A program made the position numbers and the translations under genes. From contig JAPPGB010000047.1 in NCBI GenBank assembly GCA_028821475.1, positions 1,136-65,135 on the forward strand: DNA of 64,000 nt, in the 5' to 3' direction. This DNA is from Spirochaetaceae bacterium. Lineage in GTDB: Bacteria; Spirochaetota; Spirochaetia; SZUA-6; Bin103. How positions within the stretch are numbered: position 1 is the first letter of the stretch; each line of letters starts with the position of its first letter. Below are positions 8,187 through 27,149 of the stretch, piece by piece. Under the pieces are notes generated by a model. That model worked only from the letters and a program-made list of their open reading frames with translations. It made no database searches and was not told where the DNA came from.

Positions 8187-8359
8187 ACGACCGCCGACCA
8201 TGCAAACCACTGTAATCGATCGCGGGGAAGAATCCAACACGCACCGGCAGGCACCAGGCAGGCACCACGGCACCACGAGCACGCCGACGTGCCCGGCCAA
8301 CGCCGGACGAGCGCACGCCGCTGGTGCCCGGTGCAAAAAGTCGCAGGAGGGGTTGACGT

Positions 8360-8402
8360 ATCACTATGGCTGATATTACCCATCTATATCAGTATGAGTG
8401 AT
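8360..8402. promoter_or_regulatory. Nested AT-rich palindrome (ATCACT..TGATAT..N9..ATATCA..AGTGAT): candidate operator in the divergent intergenic region
   Basis: Outer inverted repeat ATCACT (8360-8365) / AGTGAT (8397-8402); inner TGATAT (8371-8376) / ATATCA (8386-8391). TTGACG lies at 8353-8358. The palindrome overlaps the start codon of the giant gene and is markedly AT-rich in a 70% GC genome. Confidence 0.45.
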
Positions 8403-11400
8403 ATTCATGAGACGCAGTTCCACCCGGCCGCGCGACTGGCACGGCCACAGGCCTCACCCCGCGGGAGCCGGCGGCGGGCGGCGACGAAGCAGGTCCCGCT
8501 CCTGGTCGCGGTGCTGCTTGCCGCCCTGGCACTGGCGCCGGCGGCGGCGCAGGACACGGAGTCCACGGTCGCCCTCCTGAGCAACGTCGGCCAGCCCCGG
8601 CGATCTTCGGTGAACTTCCAGAGCCCTGAACGGGCGCAGGGGTTCACGACCGGGCCTAACCTCAAGGGCTATGCCCTCGCGAACATCGAGGTCGGCTTCA
8701 ACGCGGTAGAGGGCGGCGGTTCCGTCACGGTGTCGTTGTGGTCCGACAGCGGCGGCAAACCGGGAACCAAGCTGTTCGACCTGACCAACCCCTCCGGGTT
8801 CTCCGGGGCCGGGATGCACCGGTTCGCGGCGCCATCGAACACGGTGCTTGCGCCAAGGACCTCCTACCACCTGCACATGGCTCACGCCGGCAGTGAAGCG
8901 GAGCGATTGGCGACGTCGATCAAGCTCGTCAGCTCTTCGTCGGGGGTAGACGCAGGCGGCGCACCGGGGTGGGGCTTCGACAAGTGGCATTCGAAGCGCT
9001 ATTCCCATTTCAGCTACACCGAGGGGTCAGGCAAGGTCATGATCAACGTCAATGGCAGCACGGTACCGCCGGACCCCGCGATTCAGCTTGTCAGCAACCT
9101 CCAACAGACCCCGCCGTCATCGTCGGTCAACCTCCGGGGGACCCCCGAGCAGGCGCAGGGGTTCACCACCGGTACGGCCGGCGACGGCTACGTCCTGGCG
9201 CACGTGGCGATCGACTTCGACGACGTACGGGGCGGCGACTCCGTGGTCGTGTCCCTGTGGTCCGACAGCGGCGGCAAACCCGGACGCAAGCTGTTCGGCC
9301 TGAGTAACCCCGCCGGGTTCTCGGGCAGAGCGGTGCACCGCTTCACCGCGCCACCGAACACGGTGCTCGCACCAGGCACTACCTACTACGTGCACGTCAC
9401 CCATTCCGGTGACGCTACGGCCGTGGACGGGACTGCCATCGACCGCGCCTCGTCCGGCGGGGAGGATGCCGGCGGCATGGCGGACTGGAGCATTGCGGAC
9501 CGACACCACTATCGAGCCCGTCCCAACTTCCAGTTCAGCAACGGGGCCAGCGTGCTGTTGATCAAGGTGAGTGGGTCGACCGCGCCGGCGGGCAGCCTGC
9601 TGACCCCGACGCTGAAGCTCAGTGCCGGGACCATCGGCGAGGACGGCGGCGAGACGACGGTAACGGCGGTGTTGAGCCGCACCTCCAGCGTCGACACCAC
9701 GATCACCGTAAGCGCAACGCCGGTATCACCGGCAACCGACGACGACTTCACGCAAAGCGGCACGACGCTGACGATCCCGGCGGGGAGTACGACCAGCACC
9801 GGCACGGTAACCATCGCCGCGGTAAACAACGACGTCGACGCGGACGACAAGGAGGTGACGGTGTCGGCCACGGCGAGCGGCGTAGGCGTGGCGGCGCCGG
9901 CGGATCGGACGCTGACGATCACCGACGACGACACCCGTGGCGTGACGGTATCGGAGAGCACGCTGGCGTTCGGGGAAGGCGGCAGCGCGACCTACACGGT
10001 GGTGCTGGACTCGCAGCCGACGGCGGACGTGACGATCGGCGTGGCGTTCGCGCCGGGGACGGACGCGGACCTGACCGTGGACGAGGCGACGCTGACCTTC
10101 ACGGCCGGCGACTGGCGCGACGCGCAGACGGTGGAGGTACGGGCAGCGGAGGACGCGGACGACGTGCAGGACGTGGGGACGGTGCAGCACACGGTAAGCG
10201 GCGGGGACTACGGCGCCAACAGCGTGGCCGCGGCGGACGTTTCGGTCGAGGTTACCGACGACGAATCGCCGTCCACCACGGTGGTGCTGGCGGTGCAGCC
10301 GGAGGCGGTGGCCGAGGACGTGGGCGCCGGCGGCCGGGAGGTGACCGTGACCGCGACGCTGAACGCCGCGCCCCGCGCGACCGCCACCGAGGTGACGGTC
10401 TCCGTCGCTCCGGAGACGGCCACGGCCGCGGACTACGCGGCGGTGGCGGACTTCACGCTGACCATCGACGCGCAAGCGACGAGCGCGACCGGGTCGTTCA
10501 CGCTGCAGCCGGTGGACGACAGGTTGTCGGAGGGTGGCGAGACGGTCGCGGTGAGCGGCACGGCGGACTTGGCGGTGACCGGTACGACGGTGGCGATCAC
10601 CGACGATGAGGCCCCCCCGACGGTGACCCTGACGCTTGGTGCGCCGTCGATCAGCGAGCGCGGCGGCGAGACGACGGTGACGGCAACCCTCGACCACGGC
10701 TCCGCTGCCGAGACCACGGTCACGGTGACCGTGACGCCGGTGGCGCCGGCGGCGGGCGGCGACTACACGCTGAACGGCAGCACCCTGACGATCGCCGCGG
10801 GCAGCACGACCAGCACCGGCACGGTGACCATCGCGGCGGTGGACAACGCCGTGAACGCGGCGGACAAGCAGGTGACGGTGTCGGCGACCGCCACCAACAG
10901 CGTCGGCGTGACGGCCCCGGCGGACCGGACGCTGACGATCGCCGACGACGAAGTGAGCGCAGCCAAAGTGAATCCGGCGGGCGGGACCGAGCGCAATGAC
11001 CCGCCGCCTCCGCCACCCCCACCGCCACCGCCACCGCCGCGGGTGAGCATCGCGGATGCGAGCGCGCGTGAGGGCAGCGGCGTCATGGCGTTCACCGTGC
11101 GGCTCGGCGCGGCGACCGAGCAGCCGGTGACGGTGGCGTGGATGACCGCCGACGGCACGGCGGCGGCGGCCGCCGATTACACCGCGGTTACCGCCGGCAC
11201 CGTGACCTTCGCACCCGGACAGACCCGGCAGACGATCCGGGTAGATGTCCTGGACGACCGGCTGGACGAGTCGGACGAGACCTTCCTGGTACGGCTGAGC
11301 GACCCGGTGCACGCGCGGATAGAGTCCCCCGGCGGCGCCGCCACCGGGACGATCGTCGACGACGACGAGACCCCGGCGCTGACGATCGCCGATGCGCGCG

Positions 11401-13127
11401 CGGTCGAGAGCAGCGGCGAGATCGCGTTTCTGGTAACGCTGGAGGCGGCCAGCGGGCGGCCGGTGAGCGTTGCGTGCAGCACCGCGGACCAAACGGCGAC
11501 GGTGGACGAGGACTACCTCGGCGAGCGCGGCGTGCTGACTTTCGCGCCCGGGGAGACGCAGCGGACGATCCGCATCGTGGTGCTGGACGACAACCGGCAG
11601 GAGAAGGACGAGACATTCATGCTCGACCTGAGCGAACCGACCAACGCACGGATGGCGGCGGATGTGCTACGGGCCACCGGGACCATTGCGGATGACGACC
11701 GGCAGGTGACGGCGGCATGGCTGGCGCGCTTCGGGCGCACGGCAGCCAGTGAGGTGCTGGACTCGATAGTGGCGAGGATGGAAGGCGGCGCCGGCGCCGG
11801 CTCGTACATGACCCTTGCCGGCCAGCGTCTGCACGCCGTGCAGCCAGCGGCGGAGGGGGCGGATCAGCCGGCCCCGGTTGCCGTCGCCCACCGCACCATC
11901 AGCGACCGGGAGCTGCTGGCCGGGAGCGGGTTTCAGTTGGAGATTGCCCGGAGCGCGGCGCCGGAGGTCACCGCCGTGCCGCCGGGCGACGCCGCGGGCG
12001 CCCGCTGGACGGCCTGGGGCCGCGGCGCCACGACCTTCTTCGAGGGCCGGGATGCAGGGCTGTCGATGCAGGGCGAGGTGCTGACCGGCTCGTTCGGAAT
12101 CGACCGCGAGCACGGCGGGGTGCTGGCCGGCCTGGCGGTGGCGCACAGTGGCGGTGCCGGCGGCTACGCGGTGCCGGGCGGCGCCGCGGCGCCGGGCGGC
12201 GACGGTCGCCCGGCACGCGAAGGTGATCTGCGGGCAGCGTTGACCAGCGTGCACCCGTACGGACGACTGTCGCTGAACGAGCGCGTGCAGGTGTGGGGCG
12301 TGCTTGGCTACGGGATCGGCACGCTGGAACTGCGCGAAGCGAACCAGGCTGAGCGGGCCGGCATCGGCATGCTGCTGGGGGCATTCGGGGGGCGTGCGGA
12401 GCTGATGAACGGCGAGTGGAGCGGTGTCCGCCTTGCGCTGAAGACGGATGGCTACCTGTTGCGTATGACCTCGGAAGCGACCGCGGAGCTGCCGGCGGTA
12501 GCGGCGCACGTGAGCCGGCTGCGGTTGTCGGCGGAGGGCTCTACCGCCCTGGACGTCGGAGCGCGCCGCGTGCTGATGCCCTCCCTGGAGATAGGCGTAC
12601 GCCACGACGGTGGTGACGCGGAGACCGGGGCGGGTCTGGAGACGGCCGCCGCGCTGCGCTGGTTCGACCCCGCGTGGGGGCTGACGCTGGCGGCCAGCGG
12701 GCGGGTGCTGCTGACGCACCAGGATCGCGGCTACCGGGAATGGGGAGCCGGTGGTTCGCTGCATCTCGACCCGGGCGCCGCGGGGCGCGGCCCGGCGCTG
12801 ACCGTGAACTCCTCCTACGGCGCGCCCGGCGGCGCGGGAGTGCTCTGGTCGCTGCGCGACGCGACCGGCCTGGCTGCTAGCAACAGCGCCGGGGCGCCGG
12901 CGGGCCGCGTGGCCGCGCAACTGGGATACGGCCTGGAGCTGCCCGGAGGCGGCAGCGTGGTACCCTACGCCGGCGCCGAGTTGACCGAACGCGACCGCCG
13001 CACGTGGCGGCTGGGCAGCCGTTTCAGCCCGGGTGCGTTCGACGTGGCCGCCGAGGTTACCCGCCGGGACGCCGCCGGCACCGCTCCGATGCACAGCCTC
13101 ACCCTCAACGCGTCGGTGCGGCTGTAG
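8394..13127 (+). CDS. Giant secreted multi-repeat surface protein: signal peptide, 2 tandem novel ~140-aa domains, Ig-like repeats, poly-Pro linker, 2 Calx-beta domains, autotransporter-like C-terminal barrel
   Basis: Cleavable signal peptide (VPLLVAVLLAALALAPAAAQ). Two tandem repeats (VNFQSPERAQGFTTG...VSLWSDSGGKPGTKLF...NTVLAP vs VNLRGTPEQAQGFTTG...VSLWSDSGGKPGRKLF...). Repeated TLTIxAGSTTSTGTVTIAAV modules. P13 run at about 10990-11040. Two Calx-beta domains (DY..TFAPGQTRQTIRVDVLDD..DETF...ATGTI(V/A)DDD). The C-terminal about 470 aa have an alternating pattern reminiscent of type Va autotransporter barrels. Confidence 0.75.
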   Translation: MSDIHETQFHPAARLARPQASPRGSRRRAATKQVPLLVAVLLAALALAPAAAQDTESTVALLSNVGQPRRSSVNFQSPERAQGFTTGPNLKGYALANIEVGFNAVEGGGSVTVSLWSDSGGKPGTKLFDLTNPSGFSGAGMHRFAAPSNTVLAPRTSYHLHMAHAGSEAERLATSIKLVSSSSGVDAGGAPGWGFDKWHSKRYSHFSYTEGSGKVMINVNGSTVPPDPAIQLVSNLQQTPPSSSVNLRGTPEQAQGFTTGTAGDGYVLAHVAIDFDDVRGGDSVVVSLWSDSGGKPGRKLFGLSNPAGFSGRAVHRFTAPPNTVLAPGTTYYVHVTHSGDATAVDGTAIDRASSGGEDAGGMADWSIADRHHYRARPNFQFSNGASVLLIKVSGSTAPAGSLLTPTLKLSAGTIGEDGGETTVTAVLSRTSSVDTTITVSATPVSPATDDDFTQSGTTLTIPAGSTTSTGTVTIAAVNNDVDADDKEVTVSATASGVGVAAPADRTLTITDDDTRGVTVSESTLAFGEGGSATYTVVLDSQPTADVTIGVAFAPGTDADLTVDEATLTFTAGDWRDAQTVEVRAAEDADDVQDVGTVQHTVSGGDYGANSVAAADVSVEVTDDESPSTTVVLAVQPEAVAEDVGAGGREVTVTATLNAAPRATATEVTVSVAPETATAADYAAVADFTLTIDAQATSATGSFTLQPVDDRLSEGGETVAVSGTADLAVTGTTVAITDDEAPPTVTLTLGAPSISERGGETTVTATLDHGSAAETTVTVTVTPVAPAAGGDYTLNGSTLTIAAGSTTSTGTVTIAAVDNAVNAADKQVTVSATATNSVGVTAPADRTLTIADDEVSAAKVNPAGGTERNDPPPPPPPPPPPPPRVSIADASAREGSGVMAFTVRLGAATEQPVTVAWMTADGTAAAAADYTAVTAGTVTFAPGQTRQTIRVDVLDDRLDESDETFLVRLSDPVHARIESPGGAATGTIVDDDETPALTIADARAVESSGEIAFLVTLEAASGRPVSVACSTADQTATVDEDYLGERGVLTFAPGETQRTIRIVVLDDNRQEKDETFMLDLSEPTNARMAADVLRATGTIADDDRQVTAAWLARFGRTAASEVLDSIVARMEGGAGAGSYMTLAGQRLHAVQPAAEGADQPAPVAVAHRTISDRELLAGSGFQLEIARSAAPEVTAVPPGDAAGARWTAWGRGATTFFEGRDAGLSMQGEVLTGSFGIDREHGGVLAGLAVAHSGGAGGYAVPGGAAAPGGDGRPAREGDLRAALTSVHPYGRLSLNERVQVWGVLGYGIGTLELREANQAERAGIGMLLGAFGGRAELMNGEWSGVRLALKTDGYLLRMTSEATAELPAVAAHVSRLRLSAEGSTALDVGARRVLMPSLEIGVRHDGGDAETGAGLETAAALRWFDPAWGLTLAASGRVLLTHQDRGYREWGAGGSLHLDPGAAGRGPALTVNSSYGAPGGAGVLWSLRDATGLAASNSAGAPAGRVAAQLGYGLELPGGGSVVPYAGAELTERDRRTWRLGSRFSPGAFDVAAEVTRRDAAGTAPMHSLTLNASVRL

Positions 13128-17869: not shown

Positions 17870-18052
17870 CGCCTGGTCGAATGATATCCTCATCGGCGTG
17901 GCCGGCCACCTGCGGGACCAGTGTCGCGAACCCCGTGCCCAGCGTCATGCGCTATGAGCGTCCGGACCGCCCGGCAAGGGTCGAGTGGCCGCATCACGGC
18001 TGATGGTGGCAAGTGGCGATGACCGTCATTGGTCGGTATATTGTGGTGGCAC

Positions 18053-18394
18053 ATGGACTCGACGACGCTTTCGAAAGTCAGGGATTTCGTGCAGGAGGCC
18101 CTTGCTGAGGGCCATCCGCGCGGTGGAGTAGCATTCGGTCCGATCGAGGTGCGGCGTACCTATGACGCTGACGATGGCTCTCCGTATCTCCGCATCGTGA
18201 TCGTCTTCGACGGCTCCAAGGATGACCTTGATGTCGCGTGGTTGGGTGGCATGCCAAGGCGACTGCTAGCGAGGCTCTCGGATGTGGGGATAGAAGACTA
18301 TCCCAACCTTTCCTACGTGTCTAGCGAAGAATGGGGCAGTGGTGTGGAGAAATGGCTGAGCACGTATCCCGAAGTCAACATTGAATCCTGCTGA
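18053..18394 (+). CDS. Hypothetical protein (first gene of a low-GC two-gene islet)
   Basis: 113 aa from the ATG at 18053. Local GC is about 52-55% versus about 70% in the flanks. It overlaps the next ORF by 14 nt. It has a GS-KDDLD segment faintly reminiscent of a minimal nucleotidyltransferase motif but is not canonical. Confidence 0.4.
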   Translation: MDSTTLSKVRDFVQEALAEGHPRGGVAFGPIEVRRTYDADDGSPYLRIVIVFDGSKDDLDVAWLGGMPRRLLARLSDVGIEDYPNLSYVSSEEWGSGVEKWLSTYPEVNIESC

Positions 18395-18863
18395 TCTGCT
18401 GACCGCCGCCAGAAACTCGATCTTGGGTCTCGGGGCGGGTCGCCCTTTGCAAGCTACGCTTCGGCGGGCAGTCAGCACGATTTACTATGCAGCATTCACT
18501 TGTCTGGCCAATGTCTGTGCCGACAAGGTGGTCGGTCAGTATCGCAGTCTCGACGACAGCGGGAAACGAGCGTGGGTCCAAGTCTACCGCGCCGTGGATC
18601 ATGGGAAGGCAAAGAACCGTTGCAAGAACAACCAAATCATGGGCCAGTTTCCCTCGGCAATCCGTGACTTTGCTGCGCCGTTCGTAGACCTGCAGTACGA
18701 CCGTACGATTGCGGATTATGTTCCCTACGAGAACTTCTTCAAGGCTGAGGTTGACATACTCGCCGATACCGCTGAAGGAATAATTCACCGCTTCATGGGT
18801 CTTCCATCCGGCGTGCTTCGCGCCTTCGCGGTGTACGTACTGTTCGACTCACGGAAGAACTAA
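18381..18863 (+). CDS. HEPN-like domain protein (second gene of the low-GC islet)
   Basis: 160 aa. The pattern AADLLTAARNS...RRAVSTIYYAAFTCLANV...KRAWVQVY...YDRTIADY resembles PF05168-type HEPN helices with an R-x4-DY motif. The call is made by eye and is uncertain. Confidence 0.45.
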   Translation: MNPADLLTAARNSILGLGAGRPLQATLRRAVSTIYYAAFTCLANVCADKVVGQYRSLDDSGKRAWVQVYRAVDHGKAKNRCKNNQIMGQFPSAIRDFAAPFVDLQYDRTIADYVPYENFFKAEVDILADTAEGIIHRFMGLPSGVLRAFAVYVLFDSRKN

Positions 18864-18969
18864 TCGTGCGTTTCGGTTGTTCGTGGCGGCTGCTCCGTCT
18901 CACGTTGGCGGCGGAATCGCGGCGCGGTGCAGGTGATGGAATTGTTTCCGACTTCCTTGGCGGACGATT

Positions 18970-19743
18970 GTGAAGCTCGGCATTCTGGACACGTTTCGGC
19001 TGGACGGGCGGGTGGCGCTGGTGACCGGGGCCAGCCGCGGCTTCGGCGAGGTGATCGCCAGCGCGCTGGCGGAGGCGGGGGCGTCGCTGGCACTGCTGGC
19101 GCGCGGCGAGCGCGTGCAGGAAGTCGCGCGCGAGCTGAGCGCCGAGCACGGGGTGGCGTGCCGCGCCTACCGGTGCGACGTGAGCGACCCGGCCGCGGTG
19201 GAGCAGGCGGTGGCAGGTGTGATCGCGGACTGCGGCGGGCTTCACATCGTGGTGAACAACGCAGGCATCAACATCCGCGGGCCGATCGAGGAGCTGAGCC
19301 TGGAGCAGTTCCGGCAGGTGCAGGACACCAACCTCACCTCGATGTGGCTGGTGTGCCGTGCCGCCGCCGGCCACCTGAAGGAGCAGGGCTACGGACGGGT
19401 GATCAACATCGGCTCGCTGCTGTCGGTGCTCGGCATGGCCGAGCGCACCCCCTACGCGGTCAGCAAGGGCGGCGTGCTGCAACTCACCCGCGTGCTGGCG
19501 CTGGAGTGGGCGCAGGCCGGCATCACCGTCAACTGCATCATCCCCGGCATGTTCGCCACCGAGCTGAACCTCCCGTTGCTCGGCGTTCCCGAGATCGCCG
19601 CCCGCGTGGTGGCGAAGGTGCCGATGGGGCGCTGGGGCGAGCCGCGCGAGATTGCGGGGCTGGCCCTTTACCTGGCCGGCGATGCCGCGAGCTACGTCAC
19701 CGGCGCCGCGCTGACCATCGACGGCGGCTGGAGCGTGCACTGA
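18970..19743 (+). CDS. SDR family oxidoreductase (classical short-chain dehydrogenase)
   Basis: TGASRGFG cofactor motif, NNAG, and a YAVSK active-site motif. GTG start. Its stop overlaps the next gene's start (TGAGTG). Confidence 0.85.
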   Translation: MKLGILDTFRLDGRVALVTGASRGFGEVIASALAEAGASLALLARGERVQEVARELSAEHGVACRAYRCDVSDPAAVEQAVAGVIADCGGLHIVVNNAGINIRGPIEELSLEQFRQVQDTNLTSMWLVCRAAAGHLKEQGYGRVINIGSLLSVLGMAERTPYAVSKGGVLQLTRVLALEWAQAGITVNCIIPGMFATELNLPLLGVPEIAARVVAKVPMGRWGEPREIAGLALYLAGDAASYVTGAALTIDGGWSVH

Positions 19744-21036
19744 GTGAGCACCCTGGACATCCTGTTCCTGGAGCCGTTCTACGGCGGCTCGCACCGCGAG
19801 TTCGCCGACGGCCTGGTGCAGCACTCCCGCCACCGGATCGATCTGCACACGCTGCCGGCGCGCTTCTGGCGCTGGCGGATGCGCGGCGCCGCGCTCCACT
19901 TTGCCCGCGCGGTGGCGCGCCCGGCGGACTACGACCTGCTGCTGGTCACCGACCTGATGAACGTGGCCGACCTGAAAGCCCTGTGGGGAGCGGAGTGTCC
20001 GCCGATCCTCCTGTACGTGCACGAGAATCAACTCAGCTATCCGAAACCGGAGGGCGAGCAGCGCGACTTTCAGTTCGCCTTTACCGACATCGCCTCGGCA
20101 CTGGCCGCCGACGTGGTGGTGTTCAACTCCCGCTACCATCGCGACGCCTACTTCGCGGTGCTGCCGGAGGTGTTGCGGCGCATGCCGGAATACGAGCCGG
20201 CGTGGATTCCGGACGCGCTGGCGGCCAAGGCGCGCGTGCTGTACCCCGGCTGCCGATTGCCGGCGCCGTCCGTGGAACCGGCGCCGGGCGGCGCGACCGC
20301 GGTGCCGACTGTCGACCGCGGCCGTGCAGCCGAGCCTTGGTCGGCGCCGTCCTCGGAGAGCATGGGTCCGCCGGCGGCGTCCCCGCCGCCCGAGTCCCGC
20401 GCCGGCGGGGACGCCGGAGCAGCGGGACGGCAACCCGGCGCTGCCGACATCGCGTCAACGGTTGCGGGACCGGCACGTTGCGCGGTGAGGCCTGGAACAC
20501 CCCTGATGATATGGAACCATCGCTGGGAGTTCGACAAGCAGCCGGCGGCGTTCTTCGCCGCCCTGCGCAGGGTGCAGCGGGCAGGGGTGGCGTTCGAGGT
20601 GGCGTTGCTCGGCGAGAACGCCCAGTACGTGCCGCAGGAGTTCATCGCCGCGCGCAAATGGCTCGGAGAAAGGGTGGTACAGTACGGCTATCTGCCGAGC
20701 CGGGCGGCATACCTGGAGTGGCTTGGCCGCGGCTCGGTGGTGGTGTCGACCGCCATCCAGGAGAACTTCGGCATCTCGGTGGTGGAGGCGGTGGCGGCGG
20801 GCTGCCATCCGTTGCTGCCCAACCGGCTCGCCTACCCGGAAGTGATCCCGGCGGCCTTCCACGAAGAATGCCTGTACGACGGCGACGAGGCCCTGGCCGA
20901 CCGGTTGATCGCCCTGCTGTCGAGCCCGCCGGTGAAGTCGCCGCCGGGACTGGCCGCGGCCATGCGGCGCTACTCGTGGGCCTGCCTCGCTGAGGAATAC
21001 GACAACCTGTTCGACGCATGGCGGCGAATGGGCTGA
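19744..21036 (+). CDS. DUF3524/GTDC1-like glycosyltransferase (homolog of eukaryotic tRNA-queuosine mannosyltransferase) with internal low-complexity insert
   Basis: The N-terminus ILFLEPFYGGSHREF...LLYVHENQLSYP...QRDFQFAF...ADVVVFNS matches the GTDC1 N-domain. The C-terminus is GT1-like. An Ala/Pro/Gly-rich insert of about 80 aa sits between the two domains. Confidence 0.7.
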   Translation: MSTLDILFLEPFYGGSHREFADGLVQHSRHRIDLHTLPARFWRWRMRGAALHFARAVARPADYDLLLVTDLMNVADLKALWGAECPPILLYVHENQLSYPKPEGEQRDFQFAFTDIASALAADVVVFNSRYHRDAYFAVLPEVLRRMPEYEPAWIPDALAAKARVLYPGCRLPAPSVEPAPGGATAVPTVDRGRAAEPWSAPSSESMGPPAASPPPESRAGGDAGAAGRQPGAADIASTVAGPARCAVRPGTPLMIWNHRWEFDKQPAAFFAALRRVQRAGVAFEVALLGENAQYVPQEFIAARKWLGERVVQYGYLPSRAAYLEWLGRGSVVVSTAIQENFGISVVEAVAAGCHPLLPNRLAYPEVIPAAFHEECLYDGDEALADRLIALLSSPPVKSPPGLAAAMRRYSWACLAEEYDNLFDAWRRMG

Positions 21037-21243
21037 CCGGCAACGCGCGGTCGCCGCTGCCGAGGGGCGCCGCGGACGGGGTGCGGTGGCTGCGAATGTG
21101 TTCGCGGACCCGCTGGCGTGCCCAGCGAGCAGCGCGCGGAGCGGCGCGGCGACTGGCGCTGGTGCAGCCGCGAGCGACGGCGGCGGGATAGCGCGGCGGG
21201 CGCTCGTGAGGGGGCGCTCGAGTGCCGAGGGTGGGGGTTGCGT

Positions 21244-22011
21244 TCAGTCCCGGTAGGATGGGTCTTCGCGGTCCAGAATCGCTTGCAGTTCGCGGAAGTG
21301 GTCGTCGCTCAGATCCGGATAGTCGAGCCACTGCCGGCGTGTCGTCGCGGCCACCTGGTCGCAGGGGATCTTCAGTTCGCGCCCGGTTTGCAGCGCCGTG
21401 ATGTAGGTCTCGCAGGCGCGCTCGAAGTAGTACAGGTCGTCGAACGCCTGCGCAACCGTTGCGCCGATCACCATCACCCCGTGGTTGCGCATCAGCAGAA
21501 TCGGGTTGTCGCCGGCCATCGACGCCACCCGCTCCGCCTCGTCGTCCAGGCCCATGCCCTCGAACTGCTCGTCCACGGTCACGCGGCCCCAGAAGCGCAT
21601 CGCGTTCTGGTCGATCGGCGGCAGCGCCGGGTCGGCGAGGCAGGCGAGCACCGTGGCGTAGCGCGAGTGCACGTGCAGCAGGCAGCGCGCGTGCGGCACC
21701 CGGCGGTGGATGGCACCGTGCAGCCCCCAGGCGGTGGGGTCGGGGGCGTCCGGGCGCTGCATCGTGGAGTCGTCCTCGGCATCGAGCAGGAGCAGCTCGC
21801 CGGCCCGGATCAGCGAGAAATGGCGCCCGCGCGGGTTCATCAGGAAGCGCGTGCCGGCGTCGTTCACGGCCAGACTGAAGTGGTTGGCCACCGATTCGTG
21901 CAGGTCGTAGCGTGCCGCCCACCGAAACGCGCAGGCCAGCGCGATCCGCTCCTCGGCGTATTCCATTTCGGGATGACCGTGAGCTGCAAGTGCGAGTCGG
22001 TCGGCCGCCAT
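21244..22011 (-). CDS. Class II aldolase/adducin family protein
   Basis: The N-terminus is ERIALACAFRWAARYDL...NHFSLAV. His-rich metal site (HVHS, HGAIH). Start uncertain (M at 22011 or 21969; ORF open to 22113). Confidence 0.7.
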   Translation of the reverse strand: MAADRLALAAHGHPEMEYAEERIALACAFRWAARYDLHESVANHFSLAVNDAGTRFLMNPRGRHFSLIRAGELLLLDAEDDSTMQRPDAPDPTAWGLHGAIHRRVPHARCLLHVHSRYATVLACLADPALPPIDQNAMRFWGRVTVDEQFEGMGLDDEAERVASMAGDNPILLMRNHGVMVIGATVAQAFDDLYYFERACETYITALQTGRELKIPCDQVAATTRRQWLDYPDLSDDHFRELQAILDREDPSYRD

Positions 22012-22247: not shown

Positions 22248-22475
22248 ATGGACTATCGAGAGATCATCACTATTGAGCCGGGGAAGCGTGGGGGCAAGCC
22301 ATGTATTCGGGGGCTCCGCATCACCGTCTACGATGTTCTCGAATACTTGGCGTCAGACATGACTCGGGAAGAGATACTCGCCGATTTACCAGATCTTACA
22401 CCGGATGACATCAAGGCATGTCTATCTTTCGCGGCTGACCGAGAGCGCCGATTCGTCTCGGTACCGGCCGAGTGA
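22248..22475 (+). CDS. DUF433 domain protein (putative antitoxin)
   Basis: 75 aa, ...RGGKPCIRGLRITVYDVL..., with its stop overlapping the DUF5615 start. Local GC is lower than the flanks. Confidence 0.8.
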   Translation: MDYREIITIEPGKRGGKPCIRGLRITVYDVLEYLASDMTREEILADLPDLTPDDIKACLSFAADRERRFVSVPAE

Positions 22476-22804
22476 AGCTGCTCTTCGACCAGAATCTGTC
22501 GCCGCGATTGATCGACCGCCTTGCGAGTATGTATCCCGAATCCGCACATGTTCGGGATCTTGGTCTACACCGAGCCGTGGACCGGCAGGTGTGGAAACAC
22601 GCAGGTGAGAACGGTTACGCCATTGTCTCGAAGGACTCCGACTTCCATCAGCTGAGCTTTCTGTACGGACACCCGCCGAAGGTGGTTTGGATCCGGAGGG
22701 GTAACTGCACCACTAATGAAATCGAGGCGATACTGCGCGAGTTCTCCACACGGTTGGCTGAGTTCGACGCGGACGAGGCCGCATCGTACTTGGCAATCTC
22801 GTAG
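22472..22804 (+). CDS. DUF5615 (PIN-like/Mut7-C) protein, putative toxin partner of DUF433
   Basis: 110 aa, MKLLFDQNLSPRL...VSKDSDF. This is the canonical DUF433-DUF5615 pair arrangement. Confidence 0.75.
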   Translation: MKLLFDQNLSPRLIDRLASMYPESAHVRDLGLHRAVDRQVWKHAGENGYAIVSKDSDFHQLSFLYGHPPKVVWIRRGNCTTNEIEAILREFSTRLAEFDADEAASYLAIS

Positions 22805-22881: not shown

Positions 22882-25098
22882 CTACCGGCTGCCAGCCGGC
22901 GAACCGGTTGCGGTCACGAACAGGGTGGCGACGCGCCAGTCGAGCACGGCGCCGAGGCGGTTTTCGAGTCCGCGGCGCAGGGCCGCGACTGCCGCGGCGG
23001 AGACGCCGGCGGTCAGCAGCACGTGGGCGTAGGAAGTGGCGGGAACCTGCGCGCCGTTCGGGAACCAGCGTTCCAGGAGGGTGCGCGTCACTGCCAGCCG
23101 GCCCGGCTGTTCCACGATCTCGGCGGTCAGGCCGGTGACGTGCGGCGCCAGGGCGGCCTCGACTTCGGCGCCGGTGAGTGCCGGGCGGGCGCCGTAGTGC
23201 GCTTCCTCGGCGGCGGCGACGGCGGCGCGGTCGGTCTCGTCCAGCCCGTCGAGGTCCAGCACCTCGTGCAGCCGCGGAGCCCGTTCCGGCAGCGGCTCGG
23301 CCAGCACCAGGCGTCCGCCCTCGGTCAGGGCGCCGGCGGCGGCCAGCACCAGCGCTTGCCCACCGTCCGCCCGCCACACGCCGCGGCCCACCACGGCGTC
23401 GAAGCACACCGCCGGGTCGATCTGCGCCGGCTCCGCCACCAGGGTGGGCTGCATGGCGGCGGGCAGGGCGGCCAGTTGCTCGCGCACGCCCTTGGCCTCC
23501 GGCGGCGCCAGCGCCCACACGCCGCCCTCCGGGCAGCGGCGCAGCAGTTCGAAGGTGAGCAGGCCGCTGCCGAGCGCCAGGTCCAGTACCACGCCGTGGC
23601 GCTGCAGGCCGGCCGCCGCCACGATGCGGTCGCGCTCATCGGCCAGCCGCCCGGCGGCGTCGGACAGCGCCCGCTCCAGCCAGCGGTCCAGGTCGCGCTG
23701 CACGTCCTTGCCGGCGTTGGTCAGGATCTCGCCGCCTTGCTCGGTGCCCTCCCAGGCGGCCGCCAGGTTGGCTTCGCGGCGGCGCGCCACCTGGTCGCGG
23801 ATGGCGCGCTCGTGGCCGGTGTCGCCGGGCTGGTAGAACACCCGCCCCTGCAACTCCGACGGCAGGTACTGCTGCGCCACCCAGTGGTCGGTGAAGGCGT
23901 GCGGATACTGGTAGCCGGCGCCGTGGCCGAACCCCTCGGCATCGCGGCTCCCGTCGCGCAACGACGACGGCACCTGCGCCTCGCGCTCCGCCTCCACCGC
24001 GCGCAGCGCGTCGAAGAAGCCCAGGGTGCTGTTGCTCTTCGGCGCCGTGGACAGGTACAGCGCCGCCTCGGCCAGGTGGAAGCGCCCCTCCGGCAGGCCC
24101 ACGTAGTCGAACGCGGCGGCGCAGGCGGTCACCACGCCGATCGCCGCCGGGTCCGCCATGCCGATGTCCTCGGACGCCAGGATCAGCATGCGCCGGAACA
24201 GGTAGCGCGGATCCTCGCCCGCGTACACCATGCGCGCCATCCAGTACAGCGCCGCGTCGGGATCGGAGCCGCGCACGCTCTTGATGAACGCGCTGATGGT
24301 GTCGTAGTGGGCGTCGCCCTCCTTGTCGTACAGCACCGCGCGGCGCTGGATCGACTCCTCCGCCACCAGACGGTCGACGCGCACCACGCCGTCCGCGCCG
24401 GCCGGCGTGGTGGTGACCGCCAGTTCCAGGGCGTTGAGCAGGCTGCGCGCGTCGCCGTTGGCCACGTTCAGCAGGTGCTCCATCGCCTCCTCGCTTACCT
24501 CGGAGCGGTAGCCTCCCAAACCGCGCTCGGTGTCGGCCAGCGCCATCCGGGCCACCCGCTCCAGCTCCTCGCGCCCGAGCCCCTGGAGCTGGAAGATGCG
24601 GCTGCGGCTCACCAGCGGCTTGATCACCTCGAAGTAGGGGTTCTCGGTGGTGGCGCCGATCAGCACGATGGTGCCGTTCTCGACACTCGGCAGCAGCGCG
24701 TCCTGCTGCGCCTTGTTCCAGCGGTGCACCTCGTCGATGAACAGGATGGTGTGCTGGCCGTGCAGGTCGCGCGCCTCGCGCGCCGCGGCGATCGCCTCGC
24801 GGAGCTGCTTCACCCCGGCGAGCACCGCGTTCAGCGCCGTGAAGCGGGCGCGGGTGGTGCCGGCGATCACCTGCGCGAGGGTGGTCTTGCCGGTGCCGGG
24901 CGGCCCGTAGAAGATCAGCGACGAGAGCTGGTCTGCCTGGATCGCGCGCCGCAGCAGCCGCCCCGGCCCGACGATGTGGTCCTGGCCGACGAATTCGTCC
25001 AGCGTGCGCGGCCGCATGCGCGCCGCGAGCGGCGCGCCGCTCGCCTGCTCGGCCGCGCCGCGGGCCTGAAACAGGTCGCGATCTTCAGCTCTCGCCAT
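22882..25098 (-). CDS. rarA: Replication-associated recombination protein A (RarA/MgsA AAA+ ATPase) fused to a C-terminal class I SAM-methyltransferase-like domain
   Basis: Walker A GPPGTGKTT, Walker B LFIDEVHR, and the RarA C-terminal GYQYPHAF...QQYLP. A further about 290 aa follow with the VLDLALGSG motif I and motifs II/III of Rossmann methyltransferases. Confidence 0.8.
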   Translation of the reverse strand: MARAEDRDLFQARGAAEQASGAPLAARMRPRTLDEFVGQDHIVGPGRLLRRAIQADQLSSLIFYGPPGTGKTTLAQVIAGTTRARFTALNAVLAGVKQLREAIAAAREARDLHGQHTILFIDEVHRWNKAQQDALLPSVENGTIVLIGATTENPYFEVIKPLVSRSRIFQLQGLGREELERVARMALADTERGLGGYRSEVSEEAMEHLLNVANGDARSLLNALELAVTTTPAGADGVVRVDRLVAEESIQRRAVLYDKEGDAHYDTISAFIKSVRGSDPDAALYWMARMVYAGEDPRYLFRRMLILASEDIGMADPAAIGVVTACAAAFDYVGLPEGRFHLAEAALYLSTAPKSNSTLGFFDALRAVEAEREAQVPSSLRDGSRDAEGFGHGAGYQYPHAFTDHWVAQQYLPSELQGRVFYQPGDTGHERAIRDQVARRREANLAAAWEGTEQGGEILTNAGKDVQRDLDRWLERALSDAAGRLADERDRIVAAAGLQRHGVVLDLALGSGLLTFELLRRCPEGGVWALAPPEAKGVREQLAALPAAMQPTLVAEPAQIDPAVCFDAVVGRGVWRADGGQALVLAAAGALTEGGRLVLAEPLPERAPRLHEVLDLDGLDETDRAAVAAAEEAHYGARPALTGAEVEAALAPHVTGLTAEIVEQPGRLAVTRTLLERWFPNGAQVPATSYAHVLLTAGVSAAAVAALRRGLENRLGAVLDWRVATLFVTATGSPAGSR

Positions 25099-26482: not shown

Positions 26483-26914
26483 TCAGCTCGGAGCAGCGAG
26501 GGAGTTCAGAAACGCCGCGGGGGTCAGGATTGGAATCCCGCGAAACGGAGTCATGTCCAGAAGGTGGCGATCCCCAGTGATCAGGCAGTCTGCCTCGCCA
26601 ACCATCGCCGTCTCCAGGAACTGGTCGTCCTTCGGGTCCAGGCATCCGAGCTTGGCCCCGGTGATCGAAACGCGTTCGGAAACGCCCAGGAGCTGGACAA
26701 GGAACGGTGTCCTTATTGTCCGACTCACGTAGCGGTCGAACTTCGGGCGAAAGAGGCGGCTGTGCAGCTCCTTGATGGTCTCGTTGGCGAACAGGAGCAC
26801 GCCGCCCGCTTGCCGTATCGTGTCCACAACGGCGCGCGGCGTTCCCGGAGGTCTCAGTGCTGAGCTGATCAGGACGTTGGTGTCGACAACGACTCGCTCA
26901 ACTGTCATCCGCAA
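26483..26914 (-). CDS. PIN-domain toxin (TIGR00305-like)
   Basis: VVDTNVLISS...CLITGDRHLL. It overlaps the upstream Phd/YefM-type antitoxin gene. Confidence 0.75.
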   Translation of the reverse strand: MRMTVERVVVDTNVLISSALRPPGTPRAVVDTIRQAGGVLLFANETIKELHSRLFRPKFDRYVSRTIRTPFLVQLLGVSERVSITGAKLGCLDPKDDQFLETAMVGEADCLITGDRHLLDMTPFRGIPILTPAAFLNSLAAPS

Positions 26915-27149
26915 GAAGGGCGTCGAGCTTGGCGTCGGTCAGGCCCTTTGCGGTTGCCTCCGCTCCCATCGTGTCCATGGTCGCGGTGAGCCGTTCCCAC
27001 GCCGCGCCGCGGAGCTGGTCATAGAGCTCGGTCGACAGCATCACCGTGACGGCGCGGCCGTTCTTGGTCACGCTGACCGGACTCCGCTGCGCGGCATCGA
27101 GCAACTGGCCGAAGCGGTTCTTGGCCTCTCGCGCGGCTATTGCCTTCAT
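26898..27149 (-). CDS. Phd/YefM-family antitoxin
   Basis: 83 aa, MKAIAAREAKNRFGQLLDAAQRSPVSVTKNGRAVTVMLS. Confidence 0.75.
   Translation of the reverse strand: MKAIAAREAKNRFGQLLDAAQRSPVSVTKNGRAVTVMLSTELYDQLRGAAWERLTATMDTMGAEATAKGLTDAKLDALLADDS

Follow-up and report, generated by a model that had tools for sequence, protein, structure and literature searches.

What does a bacterial relative of the vertebrate enzyme that mannosylates queuosine in tRNA do, and does the dehydrogenase gene that it abuts take part in the same reaction? The question is raised by two adjacent genes at positions 18,970 to 21,036 of a 64,000-nucleotide stretch of contig JAPPGB010000047.1 from a Spirochaetaceae bacterium; this whole stretch, with a GC content of 68%, is referred to here as the window. 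The first gene encodes a short-chain dehydrogenase/reductase (SDR) and the second a glycosyltransferase (GT). Both open reading frames (ORFs) lie on the same strand and have the codon-position GC pattern of real genes. A sequence-only reading of the window had described the GT as a homologue of human GTDC1 with an Ala/Pro-rich insert, translationally coupled to the SDR. We found this to be largely right, with two details to be corrected: the stop and start codons abut, and the eukaryotic enzyme also has an insert. The best explanation that we can offer is that the GT belongs to the GTDC1 (QTMAN) family and would add a hexose to queuosine-34 of tRNA, that its insert is disordered and that the SDR is not its partner; as a whole, we give this explanation an even chance of being correct.

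The GT gene (19744–21036, + strand) encodes 430 residues plus a stop codon and was characterized with Pfam, BLASTP and an AlphaFold2 (AF2) model. The N-terminal Rossmann-like domain (residues 1–171, 19744–20256, + strand) is the family-specific QTMAN_N domain, presumed to form the acceptor side of the enzyme. The corresponding Pfam profile, PF12038 (formerly DUF3524), matches residues 6–169 with E=1.4e-62 and 210.8 bits against a cut-off of 25, and the match takes in profile positions 2–167 of 168. The C-terminal domain (residues 252–430, 20497–21033, + strand) is a predicted GT1/GT4 nucleotide-sugar-binding domain. Its GT1-like character had been noted from the sequence and is borne out by matches to PF00534 (Glycos_transf_1; residues 253–396, E=1.4e-9, 38.2 bits, cut-off 26.4) and PF13692 (E=1.8e-7). 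Within this domain lies the EX7E motif that is the hallmark of retaining GT4 enzymes (E340-NFGISVV-E348, 20761–20787, + strand). The two glutamates are invariant among 85 bacterial sequences, and likewise in an alignment that also includes vertebrate sequences.

The protein is 100% identical to an existing database entry (P0001), named by NCBI as 'MAG: DUF3524 domain-containing protein [Spirochaetaceae bacterium]', MAG denoting a metagenome-assembled genome. P0001 is encoded on a 66.8-kb ENA scaffold, ERZ23495471 (ROBB21-1_SAMN13943213 scaffold_951), which includes the window. The gene has thus already been recognized publicly: Pfam places bacterial proteins in PF12038, and NCBI names both this protein and its relative P0073. 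Thousands of such bacterial genes are catalogued. At E<=1e-30 the bacterial family comprises 1,326 clusters at 50% identity, and among the first 600 pattern matches to GTDB species representatives at least 467 encode a relative. The carriers listed include Spirochaetia, Desulfobacterales, Krumholzibacteriia, Verrucomicrobiia, Brocadiia, Anaerolineales and Actinomycetota. A search of IMG/VR gave no phage relatives.

For comparison with the vertebrate enzyme, eukaryotic sequences were retrieved by querying a protein database with the human GTDC1 sequence. This query proved to be 100% identical to a 458-residue entry (P0121) and 96% identical to macaque entries named "tRNA-queuosine alpha-mannosyltransferase". 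One of the latter, P0122 from Macaca nemestrina, aligns with the window GT by BLASTP at E=1e-75, with 31% identity over 464 columns, and the alignment is collinear and full length (query 4–423 against subject 1–450). The close alignment of the N-terminal domain with GTDC1 that had been claimed from the sequence thus holds on formal comparison, and the similarity is significant over the full length of the protein.

We then aligned five vertebrate sequences with 12 bacterial ones that represent at least six phyla (drawn from Spirochaetota, Desulfobacterota, Krumholzibacteriota, Verrucomicrobiota, Brocadiia, Anaerolineales and Actinomycetota). When the insert is left out, the window GT is 36–39% identical to vertebrate QTMAN in the N-terminal domain and 39–42% identical in the C-terminal domain. 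There are 53 invariant columns, 22 in the presumed acceptor domain and 31 in the C-terminal domain. The former comprise GGSH (residues 14–17), L37 P38, W42, W44, R45, Y91, H93 E94, Q96 L97, Y99 P100, D108 and F127 N128; the latter include W257, R260 W261 E262, D264 K265, P267 and the E340/E348 pair, and the motif WNHRWEFDKxP is intact at residues 257–267. The bacterial and vertebrate proteins therefore have the same architecture (PF12038 plus GT1/GT4) and common motifs (GGSH, HENQLxYP, FNS, W(N/P)HRWExDKxP and EX7E). They differ in that the window GT is bacterial, from an organism presumably able to synthesize or import queuosine precursors itself, and in that translation of its gene is almost certainly coupled to that of an SDR gene. 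Among the bacterial proteins, those of the type found in Anaerolineales, Actinomycetota and Brocadiia have the variant HEFFG in common with vertebrates.

The AF2 model of the GT, built on 85 homologues, has a mean predicted local distance difference test score (pLDDT) of 84.6 and a predicted template modelling score (pTM) of 0.82. It consists of two Rossmann-like domains, both modelled at pLDDT values mostly above 90. The nearest solved folds identified by Foldseek are all retaining GT4 enzymes of the GT-B fold: GlgM (6tvp), BshA (3mbo), TreT, MshA, PimA and SenB. These matches have a probability of 1.0 and template modelling (TM) scores of ∼0.55–0.7, with only 12–16% sequence identity. Searches of the PDB by sequence and by fold gave no structure from the QTMAN family itself. 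The solved GT4 enzymes (GlgM 6tvp, BshA 3mbo/5d00, MshA 3c48, TreT 2x6q and PimA 2gej) resemble the window GT in their GT-B fold, EX7E region and C-terminal domain for a nucleoside diphosphate (NDP)-sugar. They differ in that their N-terminal domains are not QTMAN_N and in that their acceptors are malate, inositol phosphate, glucose, maltose-1-phosphate or phosphatidylinositol.

In every sequence and structure comparison made (QTMAN_N, the GT4 domain with EX7E, the vertebrate alignment and the GT-B fold) the GT behaved as a QTMAN/GTDC1 protein. By family, fold and motifs it is, with near certainty, an intact bacterial member of this family. The enzyme is cytoplasmic and has the two domains of a retaining GT-B glycosyltransferase of GT4 type, the C-terminal one being predicted to bind a nucleotide sugar. 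Vertebrate QTMAN transfers the mannose of GDP-mannose onto the cyclopentenediol of queuosine-34 in tRNA-Asp, forming an alpha linkage, and a retaining GT4 mechanism fits the alpha-mannoside so formed (bioRxiv 10.64898/2026.06.28.735034; PMC11755703).

By analogy with the vertebrate enzyme, the window GT would use an NDP-sugar to attach a hexose to queuosine-34 in a bacterial tRNA with a GUN anticodon. The required acceptor chemistry exists in bacteria, which synthesize queuosine themselves. In GT-B enzymes it is usually the N-terminal domain that sets the acceptor. Here, bacteria and vertebrates resemble each other in this domain about as closely as in the donor domain, and it is for this reason, a stronger argument than genomic context, that we favour tRNA-queuosine as the acceptor. 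It appears to be the most likely function, with a probability that we would place a little short of even; the donor, a hexose, is assigned along with the acceptor by the same analogy.

Genomic context was examined by clustering the neighbours of family members at 76 genome loci and 73 metagenome loci, and the −1 and +1 positions were checked in 73 of the genome loci. No universal partner gene was found across these loci. The contexts are heterogeneous or of housekeeping type, including ybaB-recR-GT, glpX, a cold-shock protein and nuo genes. The first of these is a classic housekeeping operon setting; it occurs in a Chloroflexota/Actinomycetota-like branch, where ybaB-recR precede the QTMAN-like gene on its own strand in 5–7 loci (L162:840-1433 and its relatives, metagenome loci L092-L171). 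Nor did a polysaccharide or glycolipid cluster, or a second GT, recur beside the gene, whether across the ∼150 loci, at the −1 and +1 positions or in the contexts that were annotated. A role as a polysaccharide- or glycolipid-cluster GT was accordingly rejected, there being no recurrent GTs, flippases, polymerases or sugar-nucleotide tailoring genes among the neighbours.

Some lineages place the gene close to genes of RNA modification. At three Spirochaetales loci (L008, L013 and L033) a gene for a 260-residue RsmB/F-type (NOL1/NOP2/Sun) RNA 5-methylcytosine (m5C) methyltransferase lies directly 3′ of the GT gene on the same strand (L013:5526-6350, L033:11101-11880 and L008:3962-4711). It overlaps the GT gene in L013 and L033; in L006 it is 5 kb away. 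The GTs of the three loci are only 50–56% identical to each other, so this adjacency must be much older than the adjacency to the SDR. On a single 3.9-kb metagenome contig the two are joined as one 517-residue protein (P0297, L091:17-1570), an apparent fusion that is either real or a frameshift artefact and in which the last ∼50 GT residues are missing. The N-terminal extensions of two further family members, P0277 and P0309, matched no Pfam domain.

In Krumholzibacteriota, where the GT identities are 60–73%, queF (13 loci) and queG (10 loci) lie 4–9 kb upstream of the GT gene, both scoring above the NCBIfam equivalog cut-offs. Together with an AmmeMemoRadiSam radical-SAM gene they form one block (L055:3721-6389 and its equivalents in 10–13 loci). 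In the same phylum a gene for a HAD-IIA phosphatase overlaps the GT stop codon in 16–17 loci and is followed by an alpha/beta hydrolase gene. Elsewhere, trmB is the convergent neighbour of the GT gene in two related MAGs (L035 and L049), and a phosphohexomutase gene is a near, often divergent, neighbour in ∼7 Spirochaetia loci. Taken together, the RsmB/F methyltransferase, queF/queG and housekeeping neighbourhoods of other lineages provide weak support for a function on tRNA.

A number of observations weigh against a queuosine acceptor. Each of the RNA-modification contexts comes from a single lineage and so represents one evolutionary event; counted in this independent manner they are near chance level, and are suggestive rather than decisive. 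By a rough estimate, it is not improbable that one out of about six lineages should by chance have a cluster of queuosine genes within 10 kb. The queF and queG genes of Krumholzibacteriota are not in the GT operon, as a large protease gene on the opposite strand lies between. In the 66.8-kb contig, tblastn with E. coli QueA, Tgt, QueC, QueD, QueE, QueF and QueG plus a type-I QueF gave no match, and no queuosine-related Pfam family was present among its proteins. The same queries recovered only the Krumholzibacteriota queF/queG block in 80 genome loci and nothing in 80 metagenome loci, and no tRNA genes were found within the window. The isoelectric point of the GT is ∼6.0 (family median ∼6.2, vertebrates ∼7), which gives no hint from charge of RNA binding. 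The nearest solved folds act on small molecules, and an identity of 36–42% is no guarantee of the same acceptor or sugar in GT4 enzymes. Finally, our searches of the literature turned up neither a paper on bacterial QTMAN or DUF3524 nor a report of glycosylated queuosine in bacteria.

Several of these points are shared by the strongest competing explanation, in which family and fold are unchanged and bacteria use another acceptor, either a small molecule, a protein or a lipid, the tRNA specificity being a later eukaryotic specialization. Small-molecule candidates would include free queuine, queuosine or a 7-deazaguanine precursor, a compatible solute or a thiol-type metabolite. The small-molecule and lipid acceptors of all the nearest solved GT4 structures (GlgM, BshA, MshA, TreT, PimA and SenB), the acidic character of the protein and the silence of the literature on bacterial glycosyl-queuosine all agree with such an acceptor. 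So do the overlapping HAD-IIA gene and the neighbouring phosphohexomutase gene, which are typical of sugar-phosphate metabolism. However, these HAD and phosphoglucomutase/phosphomannomutase (PGM/PMM) neighbours would equally fit the supply of nucleotide sugar to a tRNA glycosyltransferase, and the structural matches, at 12–16% identity, reflect a generic GT-B fold. The conservation of the N-terminal domain, with its 22 invariant columns and an identity to vertebrates close to that of the donor domain, also speaks against a different acceptor. We regard a different acceptor as a serious possibility, but one that is well below even.

If queuosine-34 is indeed the acceptor, the consequences would extend beyond this locus. 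To our knowledge, glycosylated queuosines (manQ and galQ) have so far been described only in animal tRNAs. The enzymes that make them were identified only in 2023. That bacterial gene products are 36–42% identical to QTMAN over the core, the presumed acceptor domain included, leads to the concrete prediction that queuosine-34 is glycosylated in some bacteria. This would be a new bacterial tRNA modification and a pointer to the source of the animal enzyme. More broadly, and only tentatively, we suggest that several phyla (Spirochaetota, Desulfobacterota, Krumholzibacteriota, Chloroflexota-like bacteria and others) may make glycosylated queuosine in their own tRNA, that manQ-type glycosylation may be bacterial in origin, and that it may be coupled to RNA m5C methylation in some Spirochaetales. 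Crosstalk between queuosine-34 and m5C38 is known on eukaryotic tRNA-Asp, and a genetic coupling of the GT to an m5C methyltransferase in some Spirochaetales would, if true, echo it.

There is a known bacterial hypermodification of queuosine-34 on tRNA-Asp, carried out by the glutamyl-queuosine synthetase GluQRS (YadB). If our hypothesis holds, both enzymes would decorate the cyclopentenediol of queuosine-34 in bacterial tRNA after queuosine has been made. The likeness ends there: GluQRS is a paralogue of aminoacyl-tRNA synthetases that transfers glutamate, and its fold and chemistry are unrelated to those of the GT. For the window itself the outcome is mostly one of correction: the gene had been catalogued before, the SDR does not belong to the sugar-nucleotide enzymes, and the insert, being a disordered linker, is of a kind that the vertebrate enzyme also carries.

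The SDR gene (18970–19743, + strand; 257 residues) lies directly upstream of the GT gene, and its identification as an SDR was confirmed by a full-length match to adh_short_C2 (E=2.9e-65). Its best solved relative is gluconate 5-dehydrogenase 1vl8 (E=1.3e-59), and the top PDB relatives (1vl8, 4ibo and 5u9p) have E values from 1e-59 to 1e-49. The top NCBIfam models are of the SDR, gluconate-5-dehydrogenase, glucose-1-dehydrogenase, KduD and FabG types. The protein falls under all the gluconate 5-dehydrogenase and KduD cut-offs, and the one cut-off that it exceeds, by a small margin, is that for the glucose 1-dehydrogenase subfamily (218.6 against 215 bits). Extended SDRs, which modify nucleotide sugars, have ∼300–350 residues and match PF01370/PF16363 strongly; the window SDR is shorter and matches PF01370 only at E=1.3e-4. 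From its sequence it is therefore a classical SDR of the gluconate-5-dehydrogenase/KduD type rather than an extended, nucleotide-sugar-modifying one. It resembles other gluconate 5-dehydrogenase/KduD SDRs in its length (∼255 residues) and full-length adh_short_C2 match, and is unlike them in that its expression is tied to a QTMAN-family gene, in this clade only.

The genes surrounding the SDR are those of sugar catabolism: Gfo/Idh/MocA, PhyH, a class II aldolase, a TIM-barrel protein and an FGGY kinase. The SDR would thus be a sugar-acid-type dehydrogenase of this catabolic neighbourhood and not a partner in glycosyl transfer.

The junction of the two genes (19730–19746, + strand) contains a GGAG sequence at 19730–19733, the SDR stop codon TGA at 19741–19743 and the GT start codon GTG at 19744–19746. 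The string TGAGTG, reported earlier as an overlap of stop and start, is present at 19741–19746, but the two codons abut in the same frame and do not overlap: the SDR ends GTG CAC TGA and the GTG is the next codon, with the GGAG 10 nt upstream of it. The junction spans 0–30 nt in all six related genomes examined, with details that vary but a spacing that is always tight. Two of these are particularly informative. In L039 and L051 the conserved N terminus ILFLEPFYGGSH (the ILFLEP motif) is preceded in the GT frame by 80 codons without an ATG, GTG or TTG, and the sole available start is a CTG that overlaps the SDR stop codon (CTGA). Because the GT could be started only from there, this arrangement argues, on sequence grounds, for coupling by termination and reinitiation. 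At these two junctions (L039:1985-2000 and L051:9985-10000) the gene callers picked an internal methionine, thereby losing the invariant GGSH (e.g. P0048 and P0027).

Co-transcription of the SDR and GT in this clade is thus almost certain, and so is the translational coupling that the sequence-only reading had proposed. Since the two frames are the same in the window, read-through of the stop codon to give an SDR–GT fusion was also considered; it was rejected as the frames differ in L004, L037, L039 and L051. A scan of 18300–21400 for promoters and terminators gave nothing above shuffled expectation.

Outside this clade the pairing disappears. By tblastn, the SDR adjoins the GT only in L001–L004, L037, L039 and L051, where the GTs are at least ∼80% identical and the SDRs 81–95% identical. 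The pair is absent from the Spirochaetia locus L005, where the GT is 60% identical, and from ∼70 other genome loci and 80 metagenome loci. In this metagenome set, tblastn with the SDR, PhyH and aldolase as seeds gave no match. The pairing is therefore restricted to a shallow clade of Spirochaetia, and adjacency is not kept across divergent lineages.

These data bear on the earlier proposal that the two genes form one functional unit, with sugar-nucleotide modification followed by transfer. In such a two-step pathway the SDR would oxidize or reduce a sugar or sugar nucleotide, and the GT would transfer the product or use it as an acceptor. The abutting TGA and GTG, the GGAG 10 nt before the start, the persistence of the pair in six related genomes, also in those with altered flanking synteny (L051 and L039), and the apparently obligatory coupling implied by the CTGA-only starts all speak for such a pathway, and a coupling so tight and conserved could reflect a functional link that we have not recognized. 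Nevertheless, the SDR is of the classical gluconate-5-dehydrogenase/KduD type and not an extended NDP-sugar SDR, and with sugar or inositol catabolism genes on both sides it fits its surroundings by itself. Moreover, as the pair is missing from L005 and ∼150 other loci, the QTMAN-like family must work without the SDR, and vertebrate QTMAN needs no such partner (bioRxiv 10.64898/2026.06.28.735034). A two-step pathway is therefore improbable. Co-expression of the two genes within the clade is well supported, a common biochemical pathway is not, and the SDR is probably no biochemical partner of the GT.

The two domains of the GT are separated by an insert rich in alanine, proline, glycine and serine (residues ∼172–251, 20257–20496, + strand). 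These four residues make up 66% of its composition. Its codon-position GC content is flat (0.79/0.80/0.78), in contrast to that of the N-terminal domain (0.71/0.43/0.91), and it contains a 15-nt tandem repeat of 2.7 copies at 20368–20408. In the AF2 model pLDDT falls below 50 at residues 185–229. Two relatives from independent assemblies, P0002 and P0003, have a homologous in-frame insert that is ∼70% identical to that of the window, whereas the domains are 85–95% identical. Among relatives more than 75% identical, the length of the insert ranges from zero (P0007, 363 residues) to ∼90 residues. The composition, flat codon GC, low pLDDT, fast divergence and variable length all indicate that the insert is a disordered and weakly constrained linker at an interdomain site tolerant of insertions; that it is disordered and variable we consider highly probable. 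It would not be expected to contribute to catalysis.

The ∼80-residue low-complexity insert noted in the sequence-only reading is thus present, but the accompanying statement that it is absent from the eukaryotic enzyme was mistaken. The QTMANs of primates, marsupials and reptiles have their own insert of ∼110 residues at the same interdomain position. The two are unrelated in sequence, the vertebrate insert being rich in serine, lysine, asparagine and glutamate, so that the interdomain site accepts insertions in both proteins. Most bacterial members of the family differ from the vertebrate enzyme in lacking an insert, typical homologues being 360–370 residues in length. That the GT gene is decaying or inactive, its product disrupted by the insert, is very improbable: the insert does lack the codon-position signature of the gene, evolves fast and contains a short tandem repeat, but the frame is open throughout, all invariant family residues including EX7E are kept, both domains are modelled with high confidence, P0002 and P0003 retain the insert in frame, and active vertebrate QTMAN tolerates a longer one at the same site.

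A role for the GT in a conflict or defence system was also rejected. The protein scores 21.5 bits against the defence-type GT4 family PF20706, below the cut-off of 26, and PADLOC gave no defence-system match for the GT, the SDR or two small ORFs upstream of them.

These small ORFs (∼18053–18394 and ∼18528–18863) lie in a stretch of ∼1.1 kb with lower GC content, between the PhyH gene and the SDR gene (17870–18969; GC 0.64 at 18001–20000 against ∼0.69–0.70 on either side). They have no Pfam, NCBIfam or PADLOC match. As the gap between PhyH and the SDR is only 90 nt in the syntenic relative L002, the stretch looks like a recent insertion.

On the other side of the GT gene, the − strand at 22882–25098 encodes a 738-residue AAA ATPase of the RarA/MgsA type with a C-terminal extension of ∼300 residues (NCBIfam NF009881, full length, E=1.4e-293). 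This gene is syntenic with the GT gene in the close clade and in L007. Toxin–antitoxin and related small modules are unusually abundant on this contig, at 22472–22804, at 26483–27149 and at ∼33000–54000, interleaved with genes for oligopeptide ABC transporters; they include DUF5615, PIN/PhdYeFM, PIN/FitA-like, YoeB/Phd, HicB, NTP_transf_2/HEPN and UPF0175/DUF3368. Further upstream, a very large ORF on the + strand (8289–13127) encodes 1,612 residues by the longest-ORF call and 1,577 residues by the contig call, and its sole Pfam match is to Calx-beta repeats.

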